Of a stretch of DNA of 64,000 nt, positions 10,573-53,023 are shown piece by piece. Position 1 is the first letter of the stretch, and each line of letters begins with the position of its first letter. The DNA comes from an uncultured Gammaproteobacteria bacterium. Its GTDB lineage: Bacteria > Pseudomonadota > Gammaproteobacteria > QNFE01 > CAZPSE01. The stretch covers positions 19,658 to 83,657 of the forward strand of contig CAZPSE010000002.1 of the NCBI GenBank assembly GCA_964589575.1. The letters are read 5' to 3'. The notes below the pieces were generated by a model. The model searched no databases, had not been told where the DNA came from, and saw only the letters and a program-made list of their open reading frames with translations. The translations under genes were made by a program, and so were the position numbers.

Positions 10573-12879
10573 ATGTTGTCACAATCAATTAAAACTTTAT
10601 CTATACTAATAAGCGCCGCTTTATTAAATTTTTCACAATTTGCTTTTGCAGAACAATTTGCAGAGGATGAACTGTTGCCTCCAGAGGTGGCCTTTAAAGC
10701 CACCGTTAAAGTTTTAGATAATCAAAATTTGCAAGTGACTTACAACATTGCCGATAAGTATTATTTATATAACAGCAAATTTCAATTTCGCTCTAATACA
10801 GACGGTGTAACCTTAGGCGATGCTGATATTCCAAAAGGCAAAAAGAAGGTCGATCCTTTTTTTGGCGAGGTACAAACACACCGCCAAAGTATAAAAATAA
10901 AACTCCCGTTTAAAAACAGTAACCAATCTAAAACATTAGAACTCATCGCCACCTCGCAAGGCTGTGCCGACATAGGTGTTTGTTACCCTCCCTACACGCA
11001 CACCTTATTGGTAGAGCTACCCAAACTGTCGGTAGTTGCAGACGTTACAGAACAAGCCGCCAACGCACTACAAACAGCGGGCAACGCGTTAAAATCTTTC
11101 GGGCTTAATTTTGGCCTAGAAGAGCAAAACGAAGTATTGCACCCAGATAAAGCATTTAAAGCCAGCGTAATAGAAAACAAAGGCGAAATATTTGTACGTA
11201 TGGATATTGTTGACCAGCACTATCTTTATCAAGACAAATTTAAATTTGAATTAATCAATGCCGACGGGTTTAGCCTTGGCGAAGCAAAATATTCACCATC
11301 CGAAGAAAAAGACGACCCATTTTTTGGCATCATTCAGGTTTATTATAATTCTGCAGATATTACCGTGCCGGTCATTGGCGGCACGGCAGTAACGCAAAAC
11401 GCACAAATTAGGGTTACTTACCAAGGCTGTTCAGAATCGTCTGGAATTTGTTATCCACCTCAAAAGAAAGTTTTTGATATAACGCTAACGCCCTCATCAA
11501 CCTCCGCTCCTATTACAAACGCATCATCTGTAAATACGCCTCCAGCCTCATCTACAAGTAGCAGTTCTGCCCCAGTAACGGAGCAAGACAAAATAGCCGC
11601 CAGCTTTTTTAGCAACAGTATTTACCTAACCTTACTTACCTTTTTCGGGTTAGGTTTATTACTCACCTTTACACCGTGCGTACTACCAATGATACCCATC
11701 CTGTCTAGCATCATTGTTGGCAGCGGTGAAAAAATATCAACCAAACGTGCTTTTAGTTTATCTTTAGCCTATGTGCTAGCAATGGCGTTTACCTACACAA
11801 CCGCAGGGGTGATAGTGGGTCTGCTGGGTATAAACGTTCAAGTTTGGTTTCAAGACCCCATCGTATTAAGTGTTTTTGCTGCGTTATTTGTATTGTTGTC
11901 GCTGTCCATGTTTGGTTTTTACGAGCTACAAATGCCCGCATCTATACAAGCTAAATTAACCGGTGTAAGTAATAACCAAAAAGCCGGGTCACTAAAAGGC
12001 GCGGCCATAATGGGCTTATTGTCAGCCTTAATTGTTGGCCCATGTGTTACCGCACCGTTAGTTGGCGCATTAATTTACATTGCAGAAACAGGTGATGCCG
12101 TATTTGGTGGTTTGGCCTTATTCTCGTTAAGTATGGGTATGGGTACACCACTGCTTATTGTTGGCACATCTGCAGGTAAACTATTACCCAAAGTTGGCGC
12201 TTGGATGGACGCAACCAAAGCCGTATTTGGTGTTATGTTACTAGCGATGGCCTTGTGGATGTTAGAACGCATATTACCGGTACAAACCATTATGGTTTTA
12301 ACCGCAATATTATTAATTGGCTCAGGCGTATACTCTGGCGCATTCGAAGCAATAGGCAAAAAATCTGGCTGGTCAAAACTGTGGAAAACAATAGGCATTG
12401 TAATGGTTTTATACGGAACCTTATTAATGATAGGCGCGCTGTCTGGCGGTAATAGCTTTTTTGCACCATTAAAAGGCACGTTTGGTTCTGGCGGTGGGCA
12501 ACAGTCTACTCAACTGGTTTTTGAACCCGTAAAAAGCATTGAAGATTTAAATAAAGCGTTAAAACAAGCCAAAGCAGAAAACCGCAACGTCATGTTAGAT
12601 TTTTACGCAGACTGGTGCATATCCTGCAAAGAAATGGAAGCCTACACCTTTAGTGATGCGCGCGTTAAACAAGCACTTGGCAATGCCGTTTTATTAAAAG
12701 CAGACGTAACTAAAAATGATGACCACGACCAAGCCTTACTAAAACATTTTGGTTTATTTGGCCCACCAGGCATTATTTTTTATAAAGCAGGAACAACAAT
12801 AGAAGAAAAAAACTATCGCGTAGTAGGCTTTATGGAAGCCAATAAATTTACCACCAACATTAACAACGCCTTTAAATAA
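10573..12879 (+). CDS. dsbD: Thiol:disulfide interchange protein DsbD with a tandemly duplicated N-terminal alpha domain
   Basis: 768 aa. Two alpha-domain copies each carry DPFFG plus a QGC-x5-CYPP cysteine pair (SQGCADIGVCYPP and YQGCSESSGICYPP). A Ser/Thr/Pro linker follows, then the TM beta domain (CVLPM...GPCVTAPL) and a C-terminal thioredoxin fold (WCISCK). Confidence 0.9.
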   Translation: MLSQSIKTLSILISAALLNFSQFAFAEQFAEDELLPPEVAFKATVKVLDNQNLQVTYNIADKYYLYNSKFQFRSNTDGVTLGDADIPKGKKKVDPFFGEVQTHRQSIKIKLPFKNSNQSKTLELIATSQGCADIGVCYPPYTHTLLVELPKLSVVADVTEQAANALQTAGNALKSFGLNFGLEEQNEVLHPDKAFKASVIENKGEIFVRMDIVDQHYLYQDKFKFELINADGFSLGEAKYSPSEEKDDPFFGIIQVYYNSADITVPVIGGTAVTQNAQIRVTYQGCSESSGICYPPQKKVFDITLTPSSTSAPITNASSVNTPPASSTSSSSAPVTEQDKIAASFFSNSIYLTLLTFFGLGLLLTFTPCVLPMIPILSSIIVGSGEKISTKRAFSLSLAYVLAMAFTYTTAGVIVGLLGINVQVWFQDPIVLSVFAALFVLLSLSMFGFYELQMPASIQAKLTGVSNNQKAGSLKGAAIMGLLSALIVGPCVTAPLVGALIYIAETGDAVFGGLALFSLSMGMGTPLLIVGTSAGKLLPKVGAWMDATKAVFGVMLLAMALWMLERILPVQTIMVLTAILLIGSGVYSGAFEAIGKKSGWSKLWKTIGIVMVLYGTLLMIGALSGGNSFFAPLKGTFGSGGGQQSTQLVFEPVKSIEDLNKALKQAKAENRNVMLDFYADWCISCKEMEAYTFSDARVKQALGNAVLLKADVTKNDDHDQALLKHFGLFGPPGIIFYKAGTTIEEKNYRVVGFMEANKFTTNINNAFK

Positions 12880-13174
12880 GACCAATTAACTCGCTAGAGC
12901 ATTGGCAGTATACTAATAGCGCTAAGCCTTGCTTGTTCACAGCTTTATCGTGAACTAGCAAGGCTTACCAAGCGGGCTATTAGAGCATTATAAAATAACG
13001 TTATCGTCTGCCGTTTATAAGCCTCGCTAGTTTTGACTAAATCGTCTGGAACGATTTGGGGAGCGATAGCGACGTGCTAAGCACCAAGGGCAGGAAGCCC
13101 GAAGCAAAAACACCAAAACGAGCAATGCTTAACGCTAAGAGTTTGAAAATGCCAGTTAATCCGGTCTTCCTTAA
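12873..13174. mobile_element. MITE-like repeat, copy 1 (~300 bp). The right TIR CCAGTTAATCCGGTCTTCCTTAA is intact and the left TIR is degenerate, overlapping the dsbD stop codon.
   Basis: Internal modules are shared with copies at 24482, 31889 and 42234. Contains a 50-nt stem-loop AAGCCTTGCT-t-GTTCAC-agctttatc-GTGAAC-t-AGCAAGGCTT. Confidence 0.7.
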
Positions 13175-13182
13175 ATAAACCG

Positions 13183-13209
13183 CATGAGCAAGCAAGGCTT
13201 GCTCATGCA
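13183..13209. repeat. Perfect 12-bp-stem hairpin GCATGAGCAAGC-aag-GCTTGCTCATGC, immediately 5' of the DUF692 gene
   Basis: Seen in sequence. Shares the AGCAAGGCTT core with the MITE hairpins. Confidence 0.6.
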
Positions 13210-13212
13210 ATA

Positions 13213-14070
13213 ATGAGTATACAAATGTCAAAAACAGATTTTGTTGTAAAAGGTGCAGGCCTTGGTTTACGTCGTGACCGAATAGACGAAATGATTGACT
13301 ACCCCATGCCACAAGTAAACTTTATGGAAATTGCACCAGAAAACTGGATAGGTTTTGGTGGCCGCTATGCCAAAAAACTAAGGCACTTTACCGAACGGTT
13401 TGATTTTGTTTGTCATGGCTTATCATTATCTATTGGCGGCCCCACCGCAATAGACGTAGAACTGGTAAAAAACATTAAAACGTTAATGCAAGACCACAAT
13501 ATAAAAATATACAGCGAACACTTAACCTACTGTTCTGACGATGGTCATTTGTACGACTTACTGCCCATACCCTTTACAACAGAGGCGGTACATTATGTGG
13601 CAGACAGAATAAAACAAGTACAAGATATTTTAGAACAACAAATCGCGATAGAAAACGCCTCGTATTACGCCGTCGCGCATAAAGAAATGGAAGAAATTGA
13701 TTTTTTAAACGCCGTTATTGAAGAGGCAGACTGTGCATTATTGTTAGATGTAAACAACATATACGTAAACTCGGTTAATCATGGTTACGATGCCATAAAC
13801 TTTTTAGACAACATGCCAAAACACCGCATAGCCTATGCACATATTGCCGGTCACTATAATGAAGCAGATGATTTAATTGTAGACACCCACGGCGCAGATG
13901 TAATAGACCCCGTATGGAAAATATTAAATCACGCCTACAAACAGTTTGGTACGTTTCCAACATTATTAGAGCGCGACTTTAACATACCGCCCATAGCAAC
14001 CTTGTTAAACGAAGTAGAGCAAATACACCGCGCACAACAAAAAGCCGTTATAGAAGTAAGCAATGGCTAA
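13213..14070 (+). CDS. DUF692-family (MbnB/TglH-like, xylose-isomerase-like TIM barrel) protein
   Basis: 285 aa; the family assignment is from remembered conserved blocks. Confidence 0.8.
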   Translation: MSIQMSKTDFVVKGAGLGLRRDRIDEMIDYPMPQVNFMEIAPENWIGFGGRYAKKLRHFTERFDFVCHGLSLSIGGPTAIDVELVKNIKTLMQDHNIKIYSEHLTYCSDDGHLYDLLPIPFTTEAVHYVADRIKQVQDILEQQIAIENASYYAVAHKEMEEIDFLNAVIEEADCALLLDVNNIYVNSVNHGYDAINFLDNMPKHRIAYAHIAGHYNEADDLIVDTHGADVIDPVWKILNHAYKQFGTFPTLLERDFNIPPIATLLNEVEQIHRAQQKAVIEVSNG

Positions 14071-14863
14071 AACAACACTGCCCTTATTTCAGCAAAAACA
14101 ATACGAATTTACCGCCCATATACGCGACCCAAAAAACCATGCGCTACCAAAAAATGTAGAAGACCGACGCATGAATATTTACCGCGAGTTATTATTTAAT
14201 AACGTGGTCGAGTTTATAGGTAACGGGTTTCCCGTATTAAAAACCTTTTATAGTGAACAGCAATGGCTTAAAAATATACGATTATTTTATGCCCAATCAA
14301 ACAACCACTCTCCTTACTTTAAAGACATACCCGAGCAATACCTAACCTGGCTAGAAAGCCACTACCAAGTTAGCAACATCGACCCACCCTTTATGATGGA
14401 ATTAGCGCATTACGAATTAGTAGAGCTAATTTTAGATGTATCCGACGAGCATAATGATTTAGGCATAATAGATGCAAATGGCGACTTGTTAAATGAACGC
14501 CCTGTAATATCGTCTTTAGTTTGGCTACTAAACTACCAGTGGCCAGTACACTTATTAGATGCCCAGCAATACAACCCAACAAAAAAACCAGAACAACCCA
14601 GCTACCTAATTGTATTTAGAAACCGCAACGACAGCGTAGAGTTTGTAGAAAGCAACCCAGTAACCGCGCGCCTTTTAGAAATGCTACAAAATGACAACCA
14701 ACTAACAGGCCAACAAGCACTAACGCACATAGCAAAAGAAATGCAACACCCACAGCCAAAAGTTGTAATAGACGGCGGCTTACAAACATTACAAAACTTT
14801 CAAGAGCTGGGCATTATTTTAGGAACACAAATTTTAGATAATGACCAAATAAATAACCGCTAA
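14063..14863 (+). CDS. DUF2063-family (MbnC-like) partner protein
   Basis: 266 aa. Overlaps the DUF692 stop by 8 nt. The family assignment is from remembered N-terminal pattern. Confidence 0.7.
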   Translation: MAKTTLPLFQQKQYEFTAHIRDPKNHALPKNVEDRRMNIYRELLFNNVVEFIGNGFPVLKTFYSEQQWLKNIRLFYAQSNNHSPYFKDIPEQYLTWLESHYQVSNIDPPFMMELAHYELVELILDVSDEHNDLGIIDANGDLLNERPVISSLVWLLNYQWPVHLLDAQQYNPTKKPEQPSYLIVFRNRNDSVEFVESNPVTARLLEMLQNDNQLTGQQALTHIAKEMQHPQPKVVIDGGLQTLQNFQELGIILGTQILDNDQINNR

Positions 14864-14878
14864 AAAGCACCAAAACCG

Positions 14879-14938
14879 TTGCCTACATGGATGTAGGTAC
14901 ACAGAATTGCTTGGAGCATTATGCGTGCGACCCCTTGC
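14879..14938 (+). repeat. Family-B hairpin repeat, copy 1: TTGCCTACATGGATGTAGGTACACAGAATTGCTTGGAGCATTATGCGTGCGACCCCTTGC
   Basis: Near-identical copies, reverse-complemented, at 25411-25485 and 44227-44286. All three sit just 3' of + strand genes. Confidence 0.7.
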
Positions 14939-14949
14939 CTAAGCCTTCA

Positions 14950-15125
14950 TTAAGAAAATCCTGATTAACAGGCTAAAGCATGGTTTAAAATTTCATCTCG
15001 ACCAATGCGTGTAAGCATTGGCATTATACCAATAGCGCTAAGCCTTGCTTGTTCACAGCTTTATCGTGAACTAGCAAGGCTTAACGCTAATAGTTTGCAA
15101 CTCCAGTTAATCAGCACTTCCTTAT
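14950..15125. mobile_element. MITE-like repeat, copy 2 (176 bp). TIRs are TTAAGAAAATCCTGATTAACAGG and CCAGTTAATCAGCACTTCCTTAT.
   Basis: Both TIRs are present. Contains the GTTCAC/GTGAAC stem-loop module and lacks the GGGGAGCGATAGCGACGTG module. Confidence 0.7.
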
Positions 15126-15209
15126 AAAAACCAAACATTAAACATCATAAAACTTGTTCAAAGACGCTTACAATGAGAAAATGGTATTTTTCGTTTACTT
15201 CTAGGTTTT

Positions 15210-16859
15210 ATGGAACATACAAACACCCCAATAGACCACTTCATTGATCAAATCATCAAAGATGATATTCAAAAAGGCAAAAATGCAGGTAAAGTCATTA
15301 CGCGTTTCCCGCCAGAACCTAATGGCTACTTGCATATAGGGCATGCAAAATCCATCGTCTTAAATTTTGGCACAGCAAGTAAATATAAAGGCACATGCAA
15401 CCTACGTTTTGACGATACCAACCCAGAAAAAGAAGACAAAGAATTTGAGCTATCAATAAAAAAAGACGTTCAATGGCTAGGCTACAAATGGGATAGCTTG
15501 CATTATTCGTCTGATAATTTCCAGCAACTGTACAACTTTGCCATGCAACTTATTAAAGACGGAAAAGCCTATGTAGACAGTTTAAATGCAGAACAAATTA
15601 AACAGTACAGAGGCACACTAACCGAAGCTGGCAAAAACAGCCCAGACAGAGAAAACAGTATAGAAAAAAATATACAACTATTTGAAGCCATGAAAAACGG
15701 AGAATTTAAAGACGGCGAGCGCGTATTACGTGCAAAAATTGACATGTCATCACCCAATATCAACCTCCGTGACCCTGTTATATACCGTGTAAAACATGCA
15801 AAACACCACAGAACAGCTAATGATTGGTGCATATACCCAATGTACGACTACACCCACTGCATATCAGACGCGTTAGAAAACATAACCCATTCATTATGCA
15901 CATTAGAGTTTGAAGACCATCGCCCACTATACGACTGGGTTTTAAACCAACTGCCCATAAAATGTCACCCACAACAAATAGAGTTTTCTCGTTTAAATTT
16001 AGAATACACAATAATGAGCAAACGCAAACTGGCACAATTAGTGCAAAACAACCACGTATCAGGCTGGGACGACCCACGTATGCCAACCTTATCTGGCATG
16101 CGTCGCCGTGGCTACCCAGCACAAGCAATACGCCAATTTTGCGAGCGTATAGGCATAACCAAAAAAGATGCCACCATAGAAATGGGCGTATTAGAAAACC
16201 TAGTACGCGACAACCTAAACGACAATGCACCACGTGCAATGGCAGTTTTAGAGCCACTAAAAGTAACCATATCCAACTACCCAAAAAACCAAGTAGAAAT
16301 GGTCAACGCCAAAAACCACCCACAAAAACCAGAACTAGGCACGCGCGAAGTGCCATTTAGTAAAACGTTGTACATAGAACAAACCGACTTTTTAGAAGAT
16401 GCACCAAAAAAGTTTTTTAGACTCAGCATCGGCCGCGAAGTACGTTTTAAATACGCCTACTACTTAACTTGCACAAATATTGTTAAAGATGATAATGGCA
16501 ATATAACCGAAGTTATTTGTACCTACGACCCAACTACCAAAGGCGGACGATCCGAAGACGGACGAAAAATAAAAGGCACCATACACTGGGTAAGCGCAAA
16601 ACAAGCCATAGAAAAAGAGTTAATTTTGTACGACCGATTATTTAATGTTGCCAACCCAGGAACAAAAGGCGACTTTTTAGAGCAAATAAACCCAAGCTCG
16701 CAAATAACCTTAAACAATTGCAAACTAGAACCCATGCTAAACAACGCACCAACAAACCAAGTATACCAATTTGAAAGAATGGGCTATTTTTGCAAAGACA
16801 ACGCAGGGCATTACAACCGCACCATGACACTACGTGACTCATGGGCTAAAAAGAAATAA
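15210..16859 (+). CDS. glnS: Glutaminyl-tRNA synthetase
   Basis: 549 aa with the HIGH motif ([14 protein letters not shown]) and the KMSKS-type motif (IMSKR). Colinear with E. coli GlnS. Confidence 0.95.
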
Positions 16860-16901
16860 TGGTTAATGCTATTATTTTCACTATAATTAATAGCGTACAA
16901 T

Positions 16902-17138
16902 GTGATCATATCTAAATTAGATGAAGTAAAAGAACTCATTGGATTTTTAAAAGCTATTTTTATTACCTTAATTATAATAAATACATCACTAATTGCATGG
17001 ATATTTAAAAACTATAATAGTGAAACAGGCTTTAGGTTATACATAGTTACAACAGTTATTGCCACCATCACCTTAATGATAAGTATACTGTTTAGCAAAA
17101 TTTTAAAAGAAATTAAGAGGCTAGAAAATTTACCATGA
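16902..17138 (+). CDS. Small hypothetical membrane protein (78 aa)
   Basis: ORF track only; hydrophobic. A 26-aa hydrophobic mini-ORF (MIPLIISLVLGLSLLIYMTYKLYTFN) follows at 17136-17216. Confidence 0.3.
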   Translation: MIISKLDEVKELIGFLKAIFITLIIINTSLIAWIFKNYNSETGFRLYIVTTVIATITLMISILFSKILKEIKRLENLP

Positions 17139-17402
17139 TTCCACTCATCATATCCCTTGTTTTAGGCTTATCATTACTTATTTATATGACTTACAAACTT
17201 TACACTTTTAACTAAAACTGTAAAACACAATAAACACAACTAAAGCCATTGCCGATTACGACTCCCGATTTAATAAAATAGAATCTGACTTATTAATAAT
17301 AAAGCTGATGGTAGGATTACTGATTGTTGTCGAAGTAACGCCCGTTTTAAAAAGTTTATTTTAACAATCAAATCAATTTACTCTGACCCTATTGAAAATA
17401 TT

Positions 17403-17528
17403 ATGAAAACACTACTAACATCCATCTCTTTAATTTTTTTGTTGGCATCATGTGCATCAACTCAAACAAATGAAGATTTTGAAGCAACCGAAAGGCAATT
17501 TGAAAAACTAAACGAAATGTTAGACTAA
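17403..17528 (+). CDS. Putative 41-aa small lipoprotein (MKTLLTSISLIFLLASCAS...)
   Basis: Found by manual translation. Carries a lipobox (LASC). A half-copy of the 26637 palindrome precedes it. Confidence 0.3.
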   Translation: MKTLLTSISLIFLLASCASTQTNEDFEATERQFEKLNEMLD

Positions 17529-18133: not shown

Positions 18134-18147
18134 TTTATTACAGGCAT

Positions 18148-18177
18148 AAAAAAAGGCGTTAATAATAACGCCTTTTC
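18148..18177. terminator. Bidirectional rho-independent terminator (A-tract, GGCGTTA-ataat-AACGCC, T-tract) downstream of porin 1
   Basis: Seen in sequence. Confidence 0.6.
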
Positions 18178-18212
18178 ATTAACCTAAGTTAATACTTTTA
18201 CATAACAGTTAT

Positions 18213-19474: not shown

Positions 19475-19507
19475 AAAAAAGCCAAATATAAAATTTGGCT
19501 TTTTTTA
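19475..19507. terminator. Bidirectional rho-independent terminator A7-GCCAAAT-ataaa-ATTTGGC-T7 downstream of porin 2
   Basis: Seen in sequence. Confidence 0.7.
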
Positions 19508-19557
19508 TGCCGAACCAGAAACCTGACCCAACCATTTAGCTTATATAAAAACTATAT

Positions 19558-24481: not shown

Positions 24482-24824
24482 TTAAGGAAGACCTGATTAA
24501 CTGGGCTTTCAAACTATTAGCGTTAAGCATTGCTCGTTTTGGTGCTTTTTCAAAACTAGCGAGGCTTACAAGCGGCAAGCGATAACGTTATCTGCTAATG
24601 CTCCAATAGCCCGCTTGATACTAATTTGTATGGAACAAATTGGGGAGCGATAGCGACGTGCGTAGCACCGAGGGTAGGATACCCGTAGCAACTAAGCCTT
24701 GCTAGTTCACGATAAAGCTGTGAACAAGCAAGGCTTAGCGCTATTAGTATCATTCCAATGCTTATGCACTGACCGAGGTTAAATTTTTAACCATGCTTTA
24801 GCCCGTTAATCAGGTCTTCCTTAA
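24482..24824. mobile_element. MITE-like repeat, copy 3 (343 bp, most complete). TIRs are TTAAGGAAGACCTGATTAACTGG and CCGTTAATCAGGTCTTCCTTAA.
   Basis: Both TIRs are present. Contains all three internal modules: the CAAAACTAGCGAGGC hairpin, the GGGGAGCGATAGCGACGTG module and the GTTCAC/GTGAAC stem-loop. Orientation is inverted relative to copy 1. Confidence 0.8.
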
Positions 24825-25405: not shown

Positions 25406-25410
25406 ACTAA

Positions 25411-25485
25411 GCAAGGGGTCGCACGCATAATGCTCCAAGCAATTCTGTGTACCTTGCCTACATGGAAGTAGGTACACCTGAATGC
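25411..25485 (-). repeat. Family-B hairpin repeat, copy 2 (reverse orientation)
   Basis: The reverse complement matches 14879-14938. Confidence 0.7.
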
Positions 25486-25525
25486 AGGATGCATAAAGAA
25501 GGTGACAATCCTTGTAGGCAACGAT

Positions 25526-28753: not shown

Positions 28754-28860
28754 AAACCCAAACCCTATTAGTTAAGAAGCCTCGTGTTCCCTCGTTTTAC
28801 GTGGGAATACTTAAACCAATTACCGCGCCATACCAACCCTGCATAAATTATCTACATACC

Positions 28861-28943
28861 GTTACGAGCCTTGCTCGTGTCGGCATACTTCTACCACTAA
28901 CAATAAATTTTGCAAAACGACACGAGCAAGGCTCGTAACGTTT
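28861..28943. repeat. Long hairpin CGTTACGAGCCTTGCTCGTGTCG-(37 nt)-CGACACGAGCAAGGCTCGTAACG between the convergent deaD and comF genes
   Basis: Seen in sequence; 23-bp perfect arms. Confidence 0.6.
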
Positions 28944-31888: not shown

Positions 31889-32138
31889 TTAAAGAGACTC
31901 TGATTAACTGGGTTTTTAAACTATTAGCGTTAAGCCTTGCTCGTTTTGGTGCTTTTTCAAAACTAGCGAGGCTTACGAGCGGCAAGTGATAACATTATTT
32001 GATATTGCTCCAATAGCCCGCTTGGTAAGCCTTGCTAGTTCACGATAAAGCTGTGAACGAGCAAGGCTTAGCGCTATTAGTATTGACCTAGGTTAAACTT
32101 TTAACCATGCTCTACCCAGTTAATCAGTTCTTCCTTAA
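31889..32138. mobile_element. MITE-like repeat, copy 4 (250 bp). TIRs are TTAAAGAGACTCTGATTAACTGG and CCAGTTAATCAGTTCTTCCTTAA.
   Basis: Both TIRs are present. Internal sequence is about 90% identical to copy 3 but lacks the GGGGAGCGATAGCGACGTG module. Confidence 0.8.
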
Positions 32139-34066: not shown

Positions 34067-34151
34067 TAATTTGTCTCGCTAGCTCACTCCGTTTAGAAAT
34101 GTATTTAGCGCACCTCAAAAAAGGCTTGTAGCGTCGACCCCTTGCTTTAAA

Positions 34152-34184
34152 AAGACCGATTAACTAACGTCAAGTCTTCCTTAA
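34152..34184. mobile_element. Miniature deletion derivative of the MITE family (AAGACCGATTAACTAACGTCAAGTCTTCCTTAA). Its terminal TTA is the stop codon of the DUF2889 gene.
   Basis: Matches the two ends of the 51518-51688 copy, which shares the GATTAACTAACGT stretch. Confidence 0.5.
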
Positions 34185-34747
34185 CCTTCCCCATTGGGCC
34201 GTTTATAATACTGTGGCCAAAAGTCTTTTACTACTTGGCTTGCATCGTCAAACGTATGGCATGTATTTAAAAAAGGCGGTTTACGCGTTTCACTATTGTC
34301 TTTGTTTTTACTGGCATATTGTCCACCATAAATGGTCTGAAAGGCGACAGTTGCAATCGGTTTTAATAACTCATTTAAGTGTGTACAGCCGTTTATGCCA
34401 CCGGTTATTTTGCGTACTTTTCTACTCCAACCTGGGGCAATTTGTATGCCTTTTAATTTTGAAAACTGTTGATTAATTTGCGGACACATGGCAAACGGGC
34501 TGCTGTCTATTGACGCATAACATTGATGAATGATCATTTTTTTATCAACCGTTATCCTTAGCCACATATCGTGCAAATAATCGCCTGCTACAATAAAGCC
34601 ACCACGGTCTTTATTTGCAAAGGTAAACGGTTTTTGGTCGGTCATGTGCGCGTCTATATCCCACAAGCCGTCGTCCCTTTGGTAACCCTTAACGTCTATT
34701 TGACGATGGTGGCTTAATTGACGAGCATTAGCAGGCGGTAATGGCAT
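34181..34747 (-). CDS. DUF2889-family protein
   Basis: 188 aa; the family assignment is from remembered sequence. Confidence 0.45.
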   Translation of the reverse strand: MPLPPANARQLSHHRQIDVKGYQRDDGLWDIDAHMTDQKPFTFANKDRGGFIVAGDYLHDMWLRITVDKKMIIHQCYASIDSSPFAMCPQINQQFSKLKGIQIAPGWSRKVRKITGGINGCTHLNELLKPIATVAFQTIYGGQYASKNKDNSETRKPPFLNTCHTFDDASQVVKDFWPQYYKRPNGEG

Positions 34748-42233: not shown

Positions 42234-42468
42234 TTAAGAAAACCTGATTAACTGAGTTAAAGCAGAGTTAAAAATTTAACCTTGGTTTATGCATAAATAT
42301 TGGCATTATAGTAATAGCGTTAAGCTTTGCTAGTTTTGACTAAATCGTCAGGAACGATTTGGGGAGCGATAGCGACGTGCGAAGCACCGAGGGCAGGAAG
42401 CCAGAAGCAAAAACACCTAAACGTGCAAGGCTTAACGCTATTATTTTGAATAACTCCAGTCCTTCAAT
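42234..42468. mobile_element. MITE-like repeat, copy 5. The left TIR TTAAGAAAACCTGATTAACTGAG is intact and the right TIR is degenerate (CCAGT--CCTTCAAT).
   Basis: Contains the GGGGAGCGATAGCGACGTG module shared with copies 1 and 3. Confidence 0.65.
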
Positions 42469-42951
42469 ATTTTCTTTAATGCGTACACCAATATGAAGCA
42501 AATATGCCTATTAAATGCGGTTTATTGGTATAAAAAAACTTGGCAAGATTGTACCAAGGGCTTTATAGCTATTTTATTAAAAAAACACTAAAAAAAGAGT
42601 TGACACGTTTTTTATTCCACACAAAAAAAGAATAACGAATAGAAAAATAAAAACGTGACTTAGTTCTCACTAAATTTAGCATTAATTTTATAAGCCAATG
42701 ATTACATTGAAGTTTTTAAAGTGGTCAAAAAATGACACTTTTGTATTTTCGGCTTTTGTAGCGTCCTTATAAGTGCTTATTAAATTGTTTTACACAGAGT
42801 TTTCCACAGCTTATGTGGATAAACTAAATTACCCTTTAACAACAACACTTTAGCTCATTATGGTGATTAATTGCTCATCAAATCGTTGTAACTACATTAC
42901 AATTTCATAATATAATAATGCTCTACTAAAAAACCGCTAAAGCCCCTATAA

Positions 42952-43302: not shown

Positions 43303-43365
43303 TTTAAAAAAATACTGCGTTAACTAGGCGTAAAATTGACATCAAACCCAAACCGACGAGAAAAA

Positions 43366-44199
43366 ATGAGTAACGAATCTAACGACATCACCTGTATTTA
43401 TCATAAAAACTGCCCCGACGGTTTTGGTGCGGCACTTGCTGTACATATTTGGGCAAAAAAGCTCAATAAAACCGTCACTTTTTATGCGGCCAATCATGGC
43501 AACCCGCCGCCTGTTGTTACGGGTAAGACCGTATATATTGTCGACTTTGCCTACCCACGCGAAACGCTTTTAGCACTTAAAAAAGAAGCAAACTCGGTTT
43601 TAGTGATAGACCACCATAAAACCGCTCAAGAAGATTTAAAAGGTTTGAGTTTTTGTATTTTTGATATGGAAAAATCAGGCGCGGTATTAACTTGGCAGCA
43701 CTTTTTTCCTGATACGCCAATACCTTTATTACTGCAATACATTCAAGATAAAGATTTATGGCATTGGCAATTAGAAAACAGCAAAGAAATTTCATCTGCT
43801 TTGTCTGCAACCAGCATGGATTTTGATACTTGGGAACATTACCTCAACGATGAAAACATCAAAACGTTGATAACAAAAGGTCAAACCATTTTAGAATATC
43901 AGCAACAAAAAGTACAAAAAATAGCCAATGCAGAAATACCGCTGACAGAAATAGCCGGTTATAACGTGCCCTGCATCAACACCACCCAACTCATATCAGA
44001 AATTGGAAACGTACTAGCAAAAGGCCACCCTTTTGCCGCCATGTACTTTGAAACCGCAACCGACCGCATTTACTCGTTAAGATCTGACGAAGACGGTATA
44101 GATGTTTCGGCAATTGCTTTATTATTTGGTGGCGGCGGGCATTTTCATGCCGCTGGGTTTAGAGTAAAAAAACCAGAGGTGGAACTGATACCTCTTTAG
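43366..44199 (+). CDS. DHH-family phosphoesterase (NrnA-like)
   Basis: CPDGFGAA and IDHHK motifs. The ORF track starts at a TTG at 43336, but the ATG at 43366 is preferred. Confidence 0.65.
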   Translation: MSNESNDITCIYHKNCPDGFGAALAVHIWAKKLNKTVTFYAANHGNPPPVVTGKTVYIVDFAYPRETLLALKKEANSVLVIDHHKTAQEDLKGLSFCIFDMEKSGAVLTWQHFFPDTPIPLLLQYIQDKDLWHWQLENSKEISSALSATSMDFDTWEHYLNDENIKTLITKGQTILEYQQQKVQKIANAEIPLTEIAGYNVPCINTTQLISEIGNVLAKGHPFAAMYFETATDRIYSLRSDEDGIDVSAIALLFGGGGHFHAAGFRVKKPEVELIPL

Positions 44200-44226
44200 G
44201 GCATCTTTAAGGTTTTACAAACAAGG

Positions 44227-44286
44227 GCAAGGGGTCGCACGCATAATGCTCCAAGCAATTCTGTGTACCTACATCCATGTAGGCAA
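44227..44286 (-). repeat. Family-B hairpin repeat, copy 3 (reverse orientation)
   Basis: About 98% identical to the reverse complement of 14879-14938. Confidence 0.7.
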
Positions 44287-44316
44287 CGATTTTAGTGTTT
44301 TTTGAGGGTATTATTT

Positions 44317-45615
44317 TTAATTCGATAAATCAAAATTATAGTTAAGGCTTACATCCAAACGGTCGAACTTACTTATTGCGTTAAGAAAAACGTCTGACCC
44401 TGTTGAGTTGATGATGCTTAGTTGCGTAGTAACCGTCCACTCATCATCTAACTTGTAGGTTAAGCCAGCGCGTATTAAATGGTTATCAATATTGTTGCCC
44501 AGTACCAGTAAAACCACATTGGCACTTAGGTCGTCTTTTAAAAATTGGTCGCTCCACGTAACTGCTGTAACTTTAGACCCTTCGCCAGCCAATACCGCGT
44601 TGTCATCCGTCACGGGTGACTCGCCCGACATTTCTACAATCCAATTACCAAAGGTTTTGTGAGAATAGTCAAAACCTGCCATTATTTTATAACTGTTGTT
44701 ATTTTTAACACCATTAAAGCTTAATAACTGCATGGGTTTGTCTTTTATAAACAAGCCTTCTAGTTTCCATAAAAATGGATCGGCAGAATATACTAAACCT
44801 AAACCGGCTACTGGGTTTTTTAAATAGGTTTGTTCATGGTTAATAATTAAAGGGTCTCGCTGATGCACGTCACCCACTACGGCAGAGTATTCCCATTTAT
44901 CAAAAACTTGGTTTAGCCGTATTGCCCATTCGGCATTGTTATCACTAACATTGTTGGGAGACTGTGGCACGACATTGTACGGATGCCCCGCCTCTATTTG
45001 GCTATTATTAAGTGCTTGCGGTACAACAATAAAATTCATTTCTTTATTGCCACTATACCAATCGAGTTTGATTACGTTTTGCCCTACTTTAATTTCTTCT
45101 GGTTTGGCAAATAATGATGCCGAGTTATCTACGGGGCTGATAATGTCGATAATGGTTGATAAGTCGGCCTTGCCCCAAGTTACAATGCTTTTGCCTACGG
45201 TAAGTGTTTTATCGCCAAAGGCTTTTTTCCAATACAGTTCGCGTACCACGGGGTCTAGTTGGTAGCGGTTTTGTACTGCTTGGCTGTCACCCTCTATTTT
45301 AAACGCATAGTTATTGCGAATGGTAAGCTCGCCATAAAACTGCCCGTAATGGGTTTGTTTGTCGGCAATTAATTGTGCGTAGGGGCCTGCTGTTATCCAA
45401 CGTTTTGGTGAGTCTATTTGATAACCCAAATCAAAACTAAGTTTACCCCTTAATGGAAAACCTAGCTGTTCTTGTTCAATAAAAACATCATCAAACTCAA
45501 AGCTCACTTCGGTATTTTGAAGCGTTTCTTCTACAGAAAATTCTACTTCTATTTGCTGTGCATTTAGGTTTAAAGAAAAACAAATAAAGGTTATATAAGT
45601 AAACAGTTTAATCAT
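44317..45615 (-). CDS. Secreted, beta-rich hypothetical protein, candidate outer-membrane component of the upstream RND system
   Basis: Signal peptide. Last gene of the TetR-RND-LolA-like operon. Confidence 0.4.
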   Translation of the reverse strand: MIKLFTYITFICFSLNLNAQQIEVEFSVEETLQNTEVSFEFDDVFIEQEQLGFPLRGKLSFDLGYQIDSPKRWITAGPYAQLIADKQTHYGQFYGELTIRNNYAFKIEGDSQAVQNRYQLDPVVRELYWKKAFGDKTLTVGKSIVTWGKADLSTIIDIISPVDNSASLFAKPEEIKVGQNVIKLDWYSGNKEMNFIVVPQALNNSQIEAGHPYNVVPQSPNNVSDNNAEWAIRLNQVFDKWEYSAVVGDVHQRDPLIINHEQTYLKNPVAGLGLVYSADPFLWKLEGLFIKDKPMQLLSFNGVKNNNSYKIMAGFDYSHKTFGNWIVEMSGESPVTDDNAVLAGEGSKVTAVTWSDQFLKDDLSANVVLLVLGNNIDNHLIRAGLTYKLDDEWTVTTQLSIINSTGSDVFLNAISKFDRLDVSLNYNFDLSN

Positions 45616-45641
45616 AAAATTTTGATAACAGGCAAGCGTAG

Positions 45642-49113: not shown

Positions 49114-49119
49114 TTTTTC

Positions 49120-49734
49120 CTATCTTTTATTTTCATTATTGACGAATAAGGCAATCATCAAAATAAAATCTTCTGTAATTTGAGTAAATCGTTTTTTATT
49201 GGGGTCTATTAAGTAGTGCTGACACAATCCAATAAAGTGCATGTCTATCATGTATGCCAAACTGTTTGTTTTTTGTTCATCAAAGCCGTTAGGCAACAGT
49301 GGTTTTAAATAATTTGCCCACGTTGCTACATTGTTTTTGCACATGCTTTTAAAACGCGTCATTGTTTCTGGCTTATTTCTAGACTGATCCATAAACGACA
49401 GCAATGCGGTAAACACTTCGGGGCTTTGTTCTATAAACTTAAAAGCAAACGCTAAAGAAAACCGAATATAATTTTCGTAAGAATCAAACTGCTCTTTACT
49501 TGCTTGCTGGTTAAAGCCTGCAATAATCGAGTCTAAAATATAAATATAAAAGTCTTCTATTTGTGCAAAATGATGAAAAAAAGTACTTTTACTTAGCCCC
49601 GCTTGTTTAGCAATATTTGCCGCACTTAATGACTTAACCCCACCGTCTTTTAACAAAACAAAGGCTGCCATTAATAATTTTTGTTGTGATTGTTGGGCTT
49701 TGGTCAATTTTGGCATTCGGCAAGAATAAAACAA
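49120..49734 (-). CDS. TetR/AcrR-family transcriptional regulator
   Basis: N-terminal HTH (LSAANIAKQAGLSKSTFFHHF). Confidence 0.85.
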   Translation of the reverse strand: MFYSCRMPKLTKAQQSQQKLLMAAFVLLKDGGVKSLSAANIAKQAGLSKSTFFHHFAQIEDFYIYILDSIIAGFNQQASKEQFDSYENYIRFSLAFAFKFIEQSPEVFTALLSFMDQSRNKPETMTRFKSMCKNNVATWANYLKPLLPNGFDEQKTNSLAYMIDMHFIGLCQHYLIDPNKKRFTQITEDFILMIALFVNNENKR

Positions 49735-49890
49735 ACCGACCGGTCGGTCAATAAGGTTTTATATATTCAAGCTACAAACAATTAATAAGATGCCCCATAA
49801 TAATACACACACTAAATAAATGTAGCAAAGCTACAAATAAAGCGTTAAAATTGCGGGTTCTGTTAAATATTTACATCATTTGGACAAAAT

Positions 49891-50172
49891 ATGGCACGCG
49901 TTACGGTAGAAGATTGTTTAGAGCAAGGCATTGGACGTTTTGATTTGATTTTAGTTGCGGCTAAAAGAGCACGCCAAATAGCTAACGGCGCAGACCCTTT
50001 AATCCCTTCTAATGGTGATAAAGCAACCGTTATCGCCTTGCGTGAAATTGCAGAAGGTTTAATTGGCGCAGACTTTTTAGAAGAAGAAGATAAAACCACC
50101 GATGATGCATTAACCGCCTTTTTAGAAGAAGAAGCAGCATTAGCTAAAGAAGCATCTCCAGCTGTAAGTTAA
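49891..50172 (+). CDS. rpoZ: DNA-directed RNA polymerase omega subunit
   Basis: [30 protein letters not shown] is a near-canonical RpoZ N-terminus. Confidence 0.9.
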
Positions 50173-50177
50173 CTCTA

Positions 50178-50203
50178 TTGGGCTTAATTTCTTATTAAGC
50201 CCA
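50178..50203 (+). terminator. Hairpin TTGGGCTTAAT-ttc-TTATTAAGCCCAA after rpoZ, with a weak U-tract
   Basis: Seen in sequence. Confidence 0.35.
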
Positions 50204-50299
50204 AGCACCTCATGTTTTCGGTTTATTTTCCCTTTCTTTTTTTTAATCGAACAAAACCTTTACCCCTTTTTTTAGTTTTCCCTATTTATAAACAAAATA

Positions 50300-51493
50300 A
50301 TGGTGCCTAAAAAATACAATGTTGTCATTATTGGCGGTGGCGCAGCCGGTTTAATGTGTGCCATTAGCGCAGGCAGCCGTGGTAAAAGCGTAGTGGTTTT
50401 AGACCATGCCAAACAAGTTGGCAGTAAAATATTAATGTCGGGCGGTGGCCGTTGTAACTTTACCAATTACAATATTGAGCCCAGTAACTACCTTTCTCAC
50501 AACCCTCACTTTTGTAAATCTGCACTTAGCCGTTACAGCCAGTGGGATTTTATTGCCTTGGTCGAAAAACACAACATTGCCTATCACGAAAAAACCTTAG
50601 GGCAATTATTTTGCGACAATAAAGCAAAAGATATTTTAAACATGCTTTTAGACGAATGCGCGCAAAACAAGGTAAGCATCGACACCAAATGCAGTATAGA
50701 AAAAGTCATTAAATTGGATAATGGTTACCAAATAGTCACCTCAAAAGGTGACTATTTGTGCCAATCTTTAGTGGTATCTACGGGTGGTTTATCTATACCG
50801 ACCATGGGTGCAACAGGTTTGGGTTATCAAATTGCACAACAGTTTGGTCATACACTTTATCCACGTACCCCAGCTTTAGTGGCGTTTACCTTAAACCCTA
50901 AAATGCTTAAAGACTTTAACGGTTTGTCTGGCACATCCATCAGTGCAATTGTTTCTTGCAATAATCAACGTTTTAAAGAAAATATTTTGCTTACCCATCG
51001 TGGTATTAGCGGCCCTGCCATTTTACAAATATCTTCTTACTGGCAAGCAGGTGATGCTATTACTATTAATTTATTACCCAGCAATGATATTTATTCGGTT
51101 TTAAAATCGGCTCAAAACCACTCGCCAAACAGTCAATTAAATACCTTATTGAATGCTTTTTTTAGTAAAAAGCTAAGCTTAACGTTTTGCCAATTGTGGT
51201 TTAGCAGTTTTTATCTAAAAGCCATTGCACAAGTAACAGACAACGACATAAAAAAGGTTGCCGAGCAATTACATAACTGGACATTTAAACCTGCAGGGAC
51301 AGAAGGTTACAGAAAAGCAGAAGTAACGCTTGGCGGTGTCAACACTGATGAAATTTCGTCTAAAACCTTTGAAAGCAAACACGCCAATGGGTTATATTTT
51401 ATTGGCGAGGTATTAGACGTTACAGGCCATTTAGGTGGCTATAACTTCCAATGGGCTTGGGCATCTGCCGATGCAGCAGGGCAAGCAGTGTAG
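50300..51493 (+). CDS. HI0933/YhiN-like FAD-dependent flavoprotein (aminoacetone-oxidase family)
   Basis: N-terminal VVIIGGGAAGLMCA Rossmann motif and a GGGRCN motif. Confidence 0.85.
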   Translation: MVPKKYNVVIIGGGAAGLMCAISAGSRGKSVVVLDHAKQVGSKILMSGGGRCNFTNYNIEPSNYLSHNPHFCKSALSRYSQWDFIALVEKHNIAYHEKTLGQLFCDNKAKDILNMLLDECAQNKVSIDTKCSIEKVIKLDNGYQIVTSKGDYLCQSLVVSTGGLSIPTMGATGLGYQIAQQFGHTLYPRTPALVAFTLNPKMLKDFNGLSGTSISAIVSCNNQRFKENILLTHRGISGPAILQISSYWQAGDAITINLLPSNDIYSVLKSAQNHSPNSQLNTLLNAFFSKKLSLTFCQLWFSSFYLKAIAQVTDNDIKKVAEQLHNWTFKPAGTEGYRKAEVTLGGVNTDEISSKTFESKHANGLYFIGEVLDVTGHLGGYNFQWAWASADAAGQAV

Positions 51494-51517
51494 GTTTAAA
51501 CTTTATGCTTACATAAT

Positions 51518-51688
51518 TCTGATTAACTAACGTGTCATCTGGCAGCGCCAAGTAGGGCAATCTTTCAAGCACGCATCTACTTCGTTAAGTTCCTTATCAA
51601 TGGAATAACCATTAACTGCGAAACTTGCCTTGCATATACATGCTTGAAAAATTACAGATGATGCGCTAGTTAATCAGGGTTTCCTTAA
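51518..51688. mobile_element. MITE-like repeat, copy 6 (divergent internal sequence). The right TIR CTAGTTAATCAGGGTTTCCTTAA encodes the last 7 codons plus the stop of the MBL gene.
   Basis: Terminal repeats match the family consensus. The internal sequence is unrelated to copies 1-5. Confidence 0.6.
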
Positions 51689-52370
51689 CCAAACCACATT
51701 GCATATTTCCGGGTACCGCGATATTTATGCGTTTAGGCAAATCAAGGTTTAAACCGTCCATAATGGCAACAAAAGCCGCTTCGGTTTGGTTATTACCTAG
51801 ACGTGAATTAAAAGTTTTTTCATGCCCAATAGTGGATGCGGTAAAACCAGAATAATCGTGCCCAGGGTAAACAGTCGTTTTCTCATCGAGAGTAAATAAT
51901 TTTTTAGTAATTGAGTCGTATAGGTGTTTTGCATTACCCGCTTGAAAATCGGTACGTCCACAACCGTCAATCAGTAAGGCATCACCTGTAAAAACAGCAC
52001 CATCTATATGAAAACTGACACAGGTATCTGTATGCCCTGGCGTGTAAATAACATGTATTGTCTGCCCCCCTAACGACAACGTATCGCCATCGCTTAACAA
52101 TTTATCCGCACATTGTAGGCCGCTGCTTTCATGCACCATTACGTCGCTGCCAAATTCTTTTCTTAGCAGACCAGAAGCGGTAATGTGGTCGGCATGTACG
52201 TGCGTCTCTAGCGTGTATTTTAGTTTTAAGCCGAGCTGTTTTATAAACTTAACATCGCGGTCAAATTCCTCTAAAACCGAATCTATAAGTGCCGCTTCTT
52301 TTGTTTTTTGATCCCAAAGTAAATAAGTATAGGTCGCGGTTACAGAGTCAAATAATTGTTCAATTTTCAT
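51666..52370 (-). CDS. MBL-fold metallo-hydrolase, likely persulfide dioxygenase (ETHE1-like)
   Basis: HVHADH motif. Lies immediately downstream of a rhodanese gene. The internal Met start at 52370 is preferred over the ORF-track start at 52409. Confidence 0.7.
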   Translation of the reverse strand: MKIEQLFDSVTATYTYLLWDQKTKEAALIDSVLEEFDRDVKFIKQLGLKLKYTLETHVHADHITASGLLRKEFGSDVMVHESSGLQCADKLLSDGDTLSLGGQTIHVIYTPGHTDTCVSFHIDGAVFTGDALLIDGCGRTDFQAGNAKHLYDSITKKLFTLDEKTTVYPGHDYSGFTASTIGHEKTFNSRLGNNQTEAAFVAIMDGLNLDLPKRINIAVPGNMQCGLVKETLIN

Positions 52371-52389
52371 AGTATTTTTTCTCGTTACA

Positions 52390-52710
52390 TTAATTGTTTT
52401 CAGGTGCATTTTGCATTAATTGATTGCAATGGCGATAGTGTTCGACTCCACCAATATTAATGACATTTTGAAAACCAAGCTCTATTAACATCGTTACCGC
52501 TTGGTCAGCTCGCCCACCTATATGACAATAAACTAACACAGGGTTGAGTAGGTTCAGCTTTTTTTTTGCGATTTCTTGTATTTGATCAAGAGGAATATTA
52601 AGTGCGTTAGGTAAACCGCCCTGTTTAAATTCATCTTGGGTTCGTACATCTAAAAGTGTCGCATTGGGCGGGATATTGGTTCGAATATCATCACAAGTTA
52701 AATTTTGCAT
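52390..52710 (-). CDS. Single-domain rhodanese sulfurtransferase
   Basis: Active-site loop CHIGGRA. Confidence 0.8.
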   Translation of the reverse strand: MQNLTCDDIRTNIPPNATLLDVRTQDEFKQGGLPNALNIPLDQIQEIAKKKLNLLNPVLVYCHIGGRADQAVTMLIELGFQNVINIGGVEHYRHCNQLMQNAPENN

Positions 52711-52841
52711 AATTAATAGTTCCTCGGTATTTGTTTACATAAAAATGTGGCTTAAATTCAAACTTTCAAGCTGTTTTAAACTAAAGACGGGATTCAACTT
52801 GTGAACAAATATTTTCTAAACAAGGCTAGATGGCGCCTCTA

Positions 52842-53023
52842 TTAAGGAAGGCCTGATTAACTGGAGTATTTGTTTTATAGAGGCATTAAAAACAATAATT
52901 AATACTTTTTTAAACAATATAACGTTAGTTACAGCCACCCTTTAGGTGACAAGTGCCTTATACAGGTCGCAAATTGTTTACAAAAATTAAAACTACGCGA
53001 CACCGATTTTGTTAAGGAAGACC
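52842..53023. mobile_element. MITE fragments: an intact left TIR TTAAGGAAGGCCTGATTAACTGG at 52842-52864, then about 150 bp of unrelated sequence, then a second left-TIR half (TTAAGGAAGACC) at 53012-53023
   Basis: Seen in sequence; no matching right TIR. Confidence 0.45.

Follow-up and report, generated by a model that had tools for sequence, protein, structure and literature searches.

Short non-coding elements with IS5-type ends in a 64-kb segment of an uncultured gammaproteobacterial genome

A stretch of 64,000 nucleotides from an uncultured gammaproteobacterium (assembly GCA_964589575.1, contig CAZPSE010000002.1, positions 19,658 to 83,657; 38.4% GC), hereafter called the window, contains several short hairpin-rich repeats scattered between ordinary chromosomal genes. 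The question raised by this locus is what kind of sequence these repeats are and how they came to lie there. An initial annotation had described them as a previously unrecognised family resembling MITEs (miniature transposable elements bounded by inverted repeats), with 23-bp terminal inverted repeats (TIRs) and shuffleable internal modules. We conclude with good confidence that the elements are non-autonomous derivatives (MITEs) of insertion sequences (ISs) of the IS5 group, with a hairpin-rich non-coding core and 16-19-bp inverted ends (GGAAGNNCTGATTAAC[TGG]). This reading is carried by the type of the ends, their link to IS5-family transposases, a 4-bp YTAR duplication in related elements, one empty orthologous site and the way in which the variants derive from one another.

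The 23-mer TTAAGGAAGACCTGATTAACTGG has 7 matches at ≤3 mismatches in the window (0.00 expected from dinucleotide-preserving shuffles), and weaker, more degenerate ends are present at 14950, 31889, 42234, 51512 and 34151. A self-BLAST with the six proposed copies, named c1 to c6, returned exactly six loci (12873-13174, 14950-15125, 24482-24824, 31889-32138, 42234-42479 and 51518-51688). Counted together, the window has six non-coding elements with a TIR on either side (171-343 bp), a mini element of 38 bp and two ends that are solo or partial. These 9 end-bearing loci adjoin dsbD, hvfBC, glnS, pabB, yfcE, bioF, hemH and MBL-fold genes; thioredoxin, rhodanese and dbpA are also among the ordinary chromosomal genes flanking copies, the MBL-fold gene being sulfur-dioxygenase-like and the yfcE-family gene coding for a phosphodiesterase. 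The copies lie in both orientations next to unrelated genes, the sequences flanking different copies show no mutual similarity by self-BLAST, and divergence between copies amounts to 4-17%, plus indels. No open reading frame (ORF) of ≥100 aa starts within any copy, the sole overlap being the 3' end of the MBL-fold ORF, which enters the c6 TIR. When two IS5-type transposases were used as tblastn queries, no transposase or remnant was detected in the window (nothing below E 0.7). All copies form very stable rod folds on both strands (minimum free energy z-scores of -2.6 to -16 relative to dinucleotide shuffles), which is typical for MITEs. The initial description of dispersed, MITE-like, non-autonomous and non-coding repeats of 170-345 bp, with no transposase in the window, was thus borne out; its coordinates were broadly right, with c1 starting at 12872, c5 ending at 42479 and not 42468, c6 starting at about 51508-51512 and the mini element covering 34147-34184.

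To place the ends, metagenomes were scanned with TAAGGAAGNNCTGATTAAC, which gave at least 120 loci; the counts of TIR pairs and flanks given here come from the matches listed, and L numbers denote metagenome loci. Among them, GGAAGNNCTGATTAAC precedes many unrelated sequence families and therefore behaves as a transposon end common to many elements; most inverted pairs of this end are spaced 35-300 bp apart, i.e. are MITE-sized. Two loci carry full-length ISs: an element of 1169 bp in L046 (TTAA-GGAAGTTCTGATTAAC ... GGTTCC-TTAA) with a 314-aa ORF inside, and one of 1173 bp in L061 (TTAG-GGAAGGTCTGAATAAC ... GACCTTCC-TTAG) with a 326-aa ORF inside. Both ORFs match NCBIfam NF033581 (IS5 family transposase; E 4e-102 and 4e-101, respectively) as well as Pfam PF01609 and PF05598. 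Further IS5-type transposases adjoin the end motif in L080, L011 and L056, and in L046, L061 and L080 the same ends flank NF033581 transposase genes, an association by sequence. For the L046 protein, identity reaches 91% with an annotated IS5 family transposase encoded on the Marinobacter nauticus plasmid pMAQU02, and 57-60% with transposases of the IS5 and ISPpu18 families from Klebsiella and Pseudomonas. An IS5-like copy of E. coli reads TTAA-GGAAGTTGCGATTAAG ... CTTATTCGCACCTTCC-TTAA, and the end found in the window, GGAAGACCTGATTAAC, likewise begins with GGAAG and comprises about 16 bp. Judged by their sequence, the window ends are IS5-group ends. A full-length transposon with the same TIRs, for which a search had been proposed, is thus present in metagenomes; among the parents initially considered, an IS5-like TTAA targeter is retained and the piggyBac-like and IS630-like candidates are dismissed, since the ends flank IS5-family DDE genes.

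The status of the outer TTAA follows from the flanks of the related elements. Identical 4-bp flanks are present in 38 of the 65 TIR pairs (TTAA in 17, TTAG in 11, CTAA in 9 and one other), and the TTAG/TTAG and CTAA/CTAA flanks (20 cases) are direct, not inverted, repeats. As TTAG and CTAA are not palindromic and bases belonging to a TIR would be inverted, TTAA is part of a target duplication rather than of the TIR; the published target of IS5 is YTAR, i.e. (C/T)TA(A/G) (PMC5009759). We read TTAA as the 4-bp target-site duplication (TSD) of an element from the IS5 group of the IS5 family. The TIR proper is GGAAGNNCTGATTAAC, which is 16 bp long across families and extends to 19 bp (GGAAGACCTGATTAACTGG) within c1-c5. 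The repeat reported as a 23-bp TIR is real, its length being the sum of the 4-bp TSD and a 16-19-bp TIR. Both ends are present in each of c1-c5, some of them degenerate, and those of c3 are complementary at 18 of 19 positions. That the copies start and end with TTAA holds for c1, c3, c4, c5 and the mini element and fails for c2, which has TTAA on one side and TTAT on the other.

Evidence for insertion was obtained at the junction between dsbD and hvfB. In the relative L002 (HvfC 80% identical), 2 nt lie between the stop of dsbD and the start of hvfB (TAA-AC-ATG), and in the window they are separated by 333 bp. Deleting 12876-13174 (the element and one TTAA) restores ...CTTTAAATAAACCGCATG, which is collinear with ...TTTTGAATAAA-CATG in L002; the residual ~30 extra bases at the window junction are a separate small palindrome at 13179-13211, itself absent from the L002 junction. 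The L002 junction reads as an empty site for c1, so that the empty-site comparison proposed at the outset gave one positive case. At c2 and c6, gene order differs in the relatives (no synteny at the glnS and MBL-gene sites), which precludes an exact empty-site comparison. An 8-bp duplication at c1 (TTAAATAA) was considered and ruled out, as all other copies keep GGAAG right after TTAA.

The interior of c1-c5 has a common plan which, in the orientation of c3, reads TIR, linker, hairpin A, hairpin B, (module D), hairpin C, linker', segment E, TIR. Hairpin A (CAAAACTAGCGAGGC) and the 45-nt hairpin C were both confirmed, and the GGGGAGCGATAGCGACGTGC module is present in 3 exact copies (0 expected). 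Hairpins A and C are paralogous units that have the base of the stem, TAAGCCTTGCTnGTT / AACnAGCAAGGCTTA, in common. The variants differ by clean indels at repeated hairpin arms: A and B are missing from c2 with a junction in the shared left arm, B and C from c5 with a junction in the shared right arm, D and 21 nt of E from c4, and part of E from c1. They are the products expected of recombination or slippage between paralogous arms, not of free shuffling. The modules claimed initially do exist, and what had looked like shuffling comes down to arm-to-arm deletions, small deletions and the presence of D at two sites; similarly, c1 is the reverse complement of c3 except for D, which keeps the genomic strand at another position. 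In searches of ~1 Mb of fetched loci with nhmmer and BLAST, modules A-E gave only hairpin C in L140/L141, L140 being a contig of a sister lineage; hairpin C gave chance matches only in viral contigs. Rfam returned nothing for the whole window at gathering thresholds and nothing meaningful for c3 at E ≤ 10.

Combined, these results are consistent with the following scheme. The ends would be bound by a DDE transposase of the IS5 family, whose gene would lie elsewhere in the genome or have been present in the lineage at an earlier time, and which would move the element in trans by cut-and-paste. The target YTAR, here TTAA, would be cut with a 4-nt stagger and duplicated on repair, which would explain why copies start and end with TTAA. 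The copies may then have diversified as sequence was lost between the paralogous A and C arms (TAAGCCTTGCTnGTT / AACnAGCAAGGCTTA), through small deletions and by gain of the 72-nt module D. Insertions at TTAA would have landed on stop codons (dsbD, the MBL-fold gene and ORF 34181-34747) and in promoter regions because TTAA contains TAA and is frequent at the ends of genes in a 38% GC genome. One or two insertions, followed by a deletion, may have destroyed a GGDEF gene.

The consequences for the neighbouring genes can be read from the window. The dsbD stop codon (12877-12879) sits within the end of c1, and the stop of ORF 34181-34747 lies within the TTAA of the mini element. In the MBL-fold gene (51666-52409, - strand), the last 4 codons and the stop lie in the right TIR of c6; the protein ends in ...GLVKETLIN and its nearest homologue in ...GLVKE, and the TLIN tail is found in 0 of 7 proteins compared. 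This 4-residue extension results from the c6 TIR, which encodes these codons and the stop. The ancestral VKE codons (GTTAAGGAA) already resembled TTAA+GGAA, and for this reason were kept through the insertion. The claim that all copies are intergenic was therefore not upheld. A GGDEF diguanylate-cyclase gene is broken (52842-53238, pseudogene 52900-53238): its N-terminal part (...YSHPLGDKCLIQVANCLQKLKLRDTDFV) ends at the 12-nt partial end 53012-53023, the stretch with the GGDEF motif has been lost, and PF00990 positions 121-161 are still matched by the C-terminal 41 residues (E 5.7e-10). The fragments reported at 52842-53023 correspond to one solo TIR (52842-52864) and this partial end, which share a direct orientation inside the broken gene. 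In addition, elements sit 27-85 bp upstream of three start codons. No host function is indicated for the elements; hairpins that are co-transcribed with genes could affect mRNA stability or termination.

Several points weigh against the derivation from IS5-group elements. TTAA being palindromic, TSD and TIR cannot be separated within the window and this step is taken from related elements. A single orthologous empty site (dsbD/hvfB) was obtained. The cognate transposase of the host was not found within the window, matching ISs having been found only in other metagenomic organisms, and the interior is unlike the subterminal regions of the full-length ISs of L046 and L061, which lends no support to an origin from them by internal deletion. 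The strict TIR TTAAGGAAGNNCTGATTAACTGG has 0 matches in 185,579 GTDB representative genomes, a set in which the source genome and its close relatives are not included. Hairpin C together with the start of B is present in 2 copies, 92-94% identical, on the sister-lineage contig L140, where no IS5-type ends are found and the copies adjoin a different repeat; either these copies are fragments of the MITE or the hairpins are independent repeat units taken up by it, and their occurrence without IS5-type ends suggests that the core modules have some life of their own. Finally, present-day mobility is doubtful because the ends of c2, c5 and c6 are degenerate and copies differ by 4-17%; the c1-c5 family is probably old and largely inactive.

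The sister-lineage hairpins, 94% identical at best, are also the main argument for regarding the repeats as REP/BIME-like or other hairpin arrays spread by a tyrosine/HUH enzyme or by recombination, with the IS5-type ends incidental. The resemblance of the paralogous hairpins A and C to REP/BIME units, the lone AGCAAGGCTTGCT palindrome at 13179-13211 and the movement of D independently of the MITE frame point the same way. We consider this improbable, since modules A-E in the window always lie between IS5-type ends with TTAA flanks and the empty site differs by 4 bp and a complete unit from TIR to TIR; among the annotated ORFs of the window, to which the search for RAYT extended, neither a RAYT nor a Y1 gene was seen. 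Furthermore, c6, the mini element and the solo end have ends without modules, and as c6 and the mini element carry no modules, the ends are the shared defining feature. Conserved cis-regulatory or structured-RNA elements (terminators, attenuators or small-RNA genes), fixed in place and not mobile, would account for fold z-scores down to -16, for compensatory changes in module D and for the location at gene ends and 5' regions. Such elements are nevertheless very improbable here: no Rfam family is matched, even at E ≤ 10; a scan of the window found promoter-like sites in numbers equal to shuffled sequence, with no consistent signal inside the elements, and terminator-like sites modestly above it (29 vs 21.8 ± 4.1); the flanking genes are unrelated and both orientations occur; and the elements overlap and alter gene ends. 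The absence of the element from the orthologous dsbD/hvfB junction of L002 argues in addition against a conserved regulatory region, an outcome that the initial annotation had allowed for.

The TTAA found at both ends of most copies is what MITEs of a TTAA-specific piggyBac-like transposon, or of a TA-duplicating IS630/Tc1-mariner element, might also be expected to show. We give this origin hardly any credence: the termini are GGAAG...CTTCC as opposed to CCC...GGG in piggyBac, the same ends flank IS5-family DDE transposase genes and not piggyBac or IS630 genes, and the direct 4-bp TTAG and CTAA duplications of the relatives are at odds both with strict targeting of TTAA and with duplication of a 2-bp TA. 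An origin in local segmental duplication or faulty assembly is next to negligible. It could be invoked because a single 64-kb window of a metagenome-assembled contig was analysed and short-read unitigs break within the repeats. The flanks of the copies share no similarity, however, the copies differ by 4-17% and indels, and an independent Logan assembly of run SRR9822617 reproduces the c1, c2 and c6 junctions. The Logan unitig breaks were also considered as a sign of further copies elsewhere and rejected as such, as the copies within the window already account for them.

The ends that we assign to the IS5 group are not restricted to the c1-c5 family. c6 had been counted as a member of this family and has only the TIRs in common with it. 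Over ~150 nt it has 67% identity with MITEs of 260-300 bp in the metagenome loci L065 and L098, and its subterminal motif CTGGCA(A/G)CGCCAAGT is common to about a dozen metagenome loci among the matches listed. We assign c6 to another MITE family, one that is more widespread. The window contains two or more MITE families sharing the same ends, which is what would be expected of a single transposase type acting on both. Mini elements of 35-58 bp are also present in L041, L021, L025, L023, L117 and L049. Among the metagenome matches listed, GTCAT(T/C)CC...GGAATGAC-type hairpins are contained in 22 of 59 MITE-sized elements with IS5-type ends, often paired between two TIRs and accompanied by YTAR duplications (for example L048 4447-4557, L062 8509-8638, L075 561-689 and L092 785-896). 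We take hairpins of this type to be very common environmental repeats that give rise to spurious small ORFs. In many metagenomes, the form GTCATTCC...GGAATGAC is found within IS5-type MITEs. Numerous repeats of this abundant hairpin class are IS5-group MITEs. IS5-group ends of this type are widespread and delimit a very large number of MITE families in metagenomes.

Module D, 72 nt long and present in three copies that all read on the + strand, does not follow the MITE frame. It lies in the loop of hairpin A in c1 and c5, and between hairpins B and C in c3, where it is reversed relative to the frame; both sites are empty in c4. D has no TIR and no clear duplication, forms three hairpins and contains an invariant 22-nt stretch. 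Between c3 and c1/c5, 3 of 15 stem pairs are changed on both sides; 97.8% of cells remain paired compared to 27-40% with slid partners, and the observed values are reached by 20 of 500 shuffles. As the comparison involves three sequences and two independent events, these compensatory changes are suggestive only, and palindromes may also keep their pairing through DNA-level correction. No relatives of D were detected in Rfam, in viral contigs (chance matches only) or in ~1 Mb of fetched loci. An 18-mer of D had 15 matches in the 185,579 GTDB representative genomes, approximately the chance number; these were rejected as relatives, 9 being unrelated and 6 lying in GTCATTGC...GGCAATC hairpin repeats (Bacteroidota and others) that have the 18-mer alone in common with D. 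An inversion model for the two positions was also discarded, as two successive inversions would be needed compared to one insertion event per lineage. The most economical reading of D would be a second small element nested twice. Its hairpins, compensatory changes, invariant stretch, constant chromosomal strand, two sites and lack of TIR or duplication would be compatible with a hairpin-guided, single-strand mechanism (IS200/IS605-PATE-like or REP-like) or with an RNA structure that MITEs carry. It is unlikely, if worth keeping in mind, that D is a small mobile or recombining element in its own right, which has entered the MITE two or more times, and that hairpins A and C are then independent repeats captured by IS5-type ends. 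The positions of all features are given in Table 1.

Table 1. Positions and organization of the proposed IS5-type elements, their fragments and associated features in the window
Feature	Position	Strand	Description
c1 MITE	12872..13174	-	TTAA TSDs 12872-12875 and 13171-13174, the element itself 12876-13170; read as in c3: TIR, hairpin A (module D in its loop), hairpins B and C, TIR; ATAA in place of GGAA at the outermost 4 nt of one TIR, giving the dsbD stop codon
c2 MITE	14950..15125	-	Deletion derivative without hairpins A and B; junction in shared TAAGCCTTGCTnGTT arm; flanks TTAA, TTAT
c3 MITE	24482..24824	+	Longest, best preserved; TTAA-GGAAGACCTGATTAACTGG ... CCCGTTAATCAGGTCTTCC-TTAA; module D between hairpins B and C; element end 27 bp upstream of yfcE-family ATG
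c4 MITE	31889..32138	+	c3-like, without module D; 21-nt deletion in segment E; TTAA at both ends
c5 MITE	42234..42479	-	Module D in the loop of hairpin A; B and C deleted, junction within shared AGCAAGGCTTA arm; TTAA at both ends; one degenerate TIR
c6 MITE	51508..51688	.	Different family, same IS5-type ends; left end degenerate
Mini element	34147..34184	.	TTAA, 14-nt left TIR, 9-nt spacer, outer 7 nt of right TIR, TTAA
Solo TIR	52842..52864	+	1 mismatch, includes TTAA; 5' side of GGDEF gene remnant
Partial end TTAAGGAAGACC	53012..53023	+	12 nt, where the GGDEF reading frame breaks
Module D in c1	13036..13107	+	72 nt, three hairpins, invariant TTGGGGAGCGATAGCGACGTGC
Module D in c3	24620..24691	+	Other position, opposite orientation relative to MITE frame; 83% identical to c1 copy; 3 compensatory stem changes
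Module D in c5	42339..42410	+	Arrangement as in c1 (94% identical)
Extra palindrome	13179..13211	.	33 nt, GCATGAGCAAGCAAGGCTTGCTCATGC core, between c1 and hvfB; carries AGCAAGGCTTGCT motif of hairpin arms

Mosaics of hairpins are known from other bacteria. BIME/REP sequences of enterobacteria and BOX elements of Streptococcus pneumoniae are intergenic and consist of a few hairpin modules in varying number and combination; they have no IS-type TIRs and no YTAR duplication, and REPs are linked to RAYT transposases. The window elements resemble them as hairpin-module mosaics and differ in that the modules stand between the TIRs of a transposon. In Neisseria, the Correia elements (NEMIS) are MITEs 100-160 bp in length that have ~26-bp TIRs, occupy TA-containing sites with a TA duplication, often adjoin genes, alter transcripts and exist as internal deletion variants; we know of no established transposase for them. 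Their TA duplication and other TIR sequence distinguish them from the elements described here.

MITEs derived from the IS5 family have already been described, namely BrickBuilt, MITE293 and MITE700 in Porphyromonas gingivalis and ATR in Neisseria, whose parent is ISNme1 (PMC4596501). Like the window elements, they are non-coding and multicopy, resemble the parent IS in the TIR only and contain internal repeated modules, some copies being one-ended; BrickBuilt holds a minisatellite (PMC4596501). They differ by belonging to another IS5-family subgroup with GAGACCTTTGCA ends, by duplications that are 2-9 bp long or irregular, and by their host phyla and interior. With the IS5 group itself (E. coli IS5, ISEc68-like, Marinobacter and Pseudomonas IS5-like elements), the window elements share ends of ~16 bp starting with GGAAG (E. 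coli GGAAGTTGCGATTAAG / GGAAGGTGCGAATAAG compared to GGAAGACCTGATTAAC here), the 4-bp YTAR duplication (TTAA, TTAG, CTAA; PMC5009759) and, in metagenomes, NF033581 / PF01609 + PF05598 transposases between identical ends. In contrast to these ISs, they are 171-343 bp long, carry no transposase gene and have an interior unlike any IS found here; the ends of E. coli IS5 differ from theirs at positions 8-9 and 16. MITEs with IS5-type ends are known as ordinary bacterial mobile DNA, and what appears to be undescribed is the internal sequence. The novelty claimed initially applies to this interior (no Rfam match, no GTDB match and, in the fetched loci, only hairpin C in a sister lineage) and not to the type of the ends.

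HvfC and GlnS of the window are encoded, with exact identity, in Logan assemblies of run SRR9822617. The closest relatives of the host are metagenomic, with protein identities of 80-86% for ENA ERZ23491061, 80% for JGI 3300003540 and 77% for GCA_015487625.1; further relatives, at ≤69% identity, have the source labels Gammaproteobacteria, Thiotrichales, Arenicellales or hydrothermal vent metagenome. From these labels, the host probably belongs to an uncultured gammaproteobacterial lineage of vent-type habitat. The hvfB-hvfC pair next to c1 (MNIO-type RiPP maturase and partner; NF003818, NF050145) covers 13213-14863 in the window and 1665-3297 in L002; no hvfA-like precursor gene lies directly upstream, where the window has the MITE and L002 has hvfB abutting dsbD.

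Other repeats were observed in the window. The 10-mer GACCCCTTGC has 9 occurrences (0.06 expected), in coding as well as intergenic sequence (6783, 14929, 23421, 25411, 30908, 32219, 34136, 44227 and 56212), with a longer consensus of approximately AAAAAGGC-N6-CGTCGACCCCTTGCTT; it could be uptake-signal-like or REP-like. This 10-mer is contained in a second repeat family of ~93 nt (14847-14939, 25408-25494 and 44226-44318; 89-100% identity over 44-93 nt), which lies directly 3' of hvfC, of the yfcE-family gene and of ORF 43336-44199, and within which one Logan unitig breaks. Between convergent genes, at 28860-28940, lies a perfect inverted repeat of 23 nt (CGTTACGAGCCTTGCTCGTGTCG / CGACACGAGCAAGGCTCGTAACG; spacer of 35 nt), each arm of which is palindromic and has T-runs on both strands; we regard it as a probable bidirectional terminator or other small palindromic element. 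Contigs of the sister lineage carry more short repeat families, CCACAAAGACCACGGAGAAAAAAATTTTGTATC... and GGGGTCAGAGCAC...GTGTTCTGACCCC (L140 1-55 and 260-315; L168 288-350 and 1363-1414), and for this reason the lineage appears rich in small repeats.

For annotation, about 2.5% of the window consists of MITE sequence, which is overlooked or misinterpreted by gene callers: three gene ends are altered (dsbD, the MBL-fold/sulfur dioxygenase gene and ORF 34181-34747), c1 separates dsbD and hvfB, which abut in a relative, and elements mark a destroyed GGDEF gene. For assembly, the repeats break short-read unitigs. The understanding of IS5-type transposition is unchanged by these elements, and the points that retain interest are module D and the wider link of IS5-type ends with common hairpin repeats. 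Searching metagenomes for the end GGAAGNNCTGATTAAC together with a YTAR duplication is a simple way to recover MITEs in very large number and diversity, and in the uncultured, vent-type gammaproteobacterial lineage studied here the elements mark the activity of the IS5 group.

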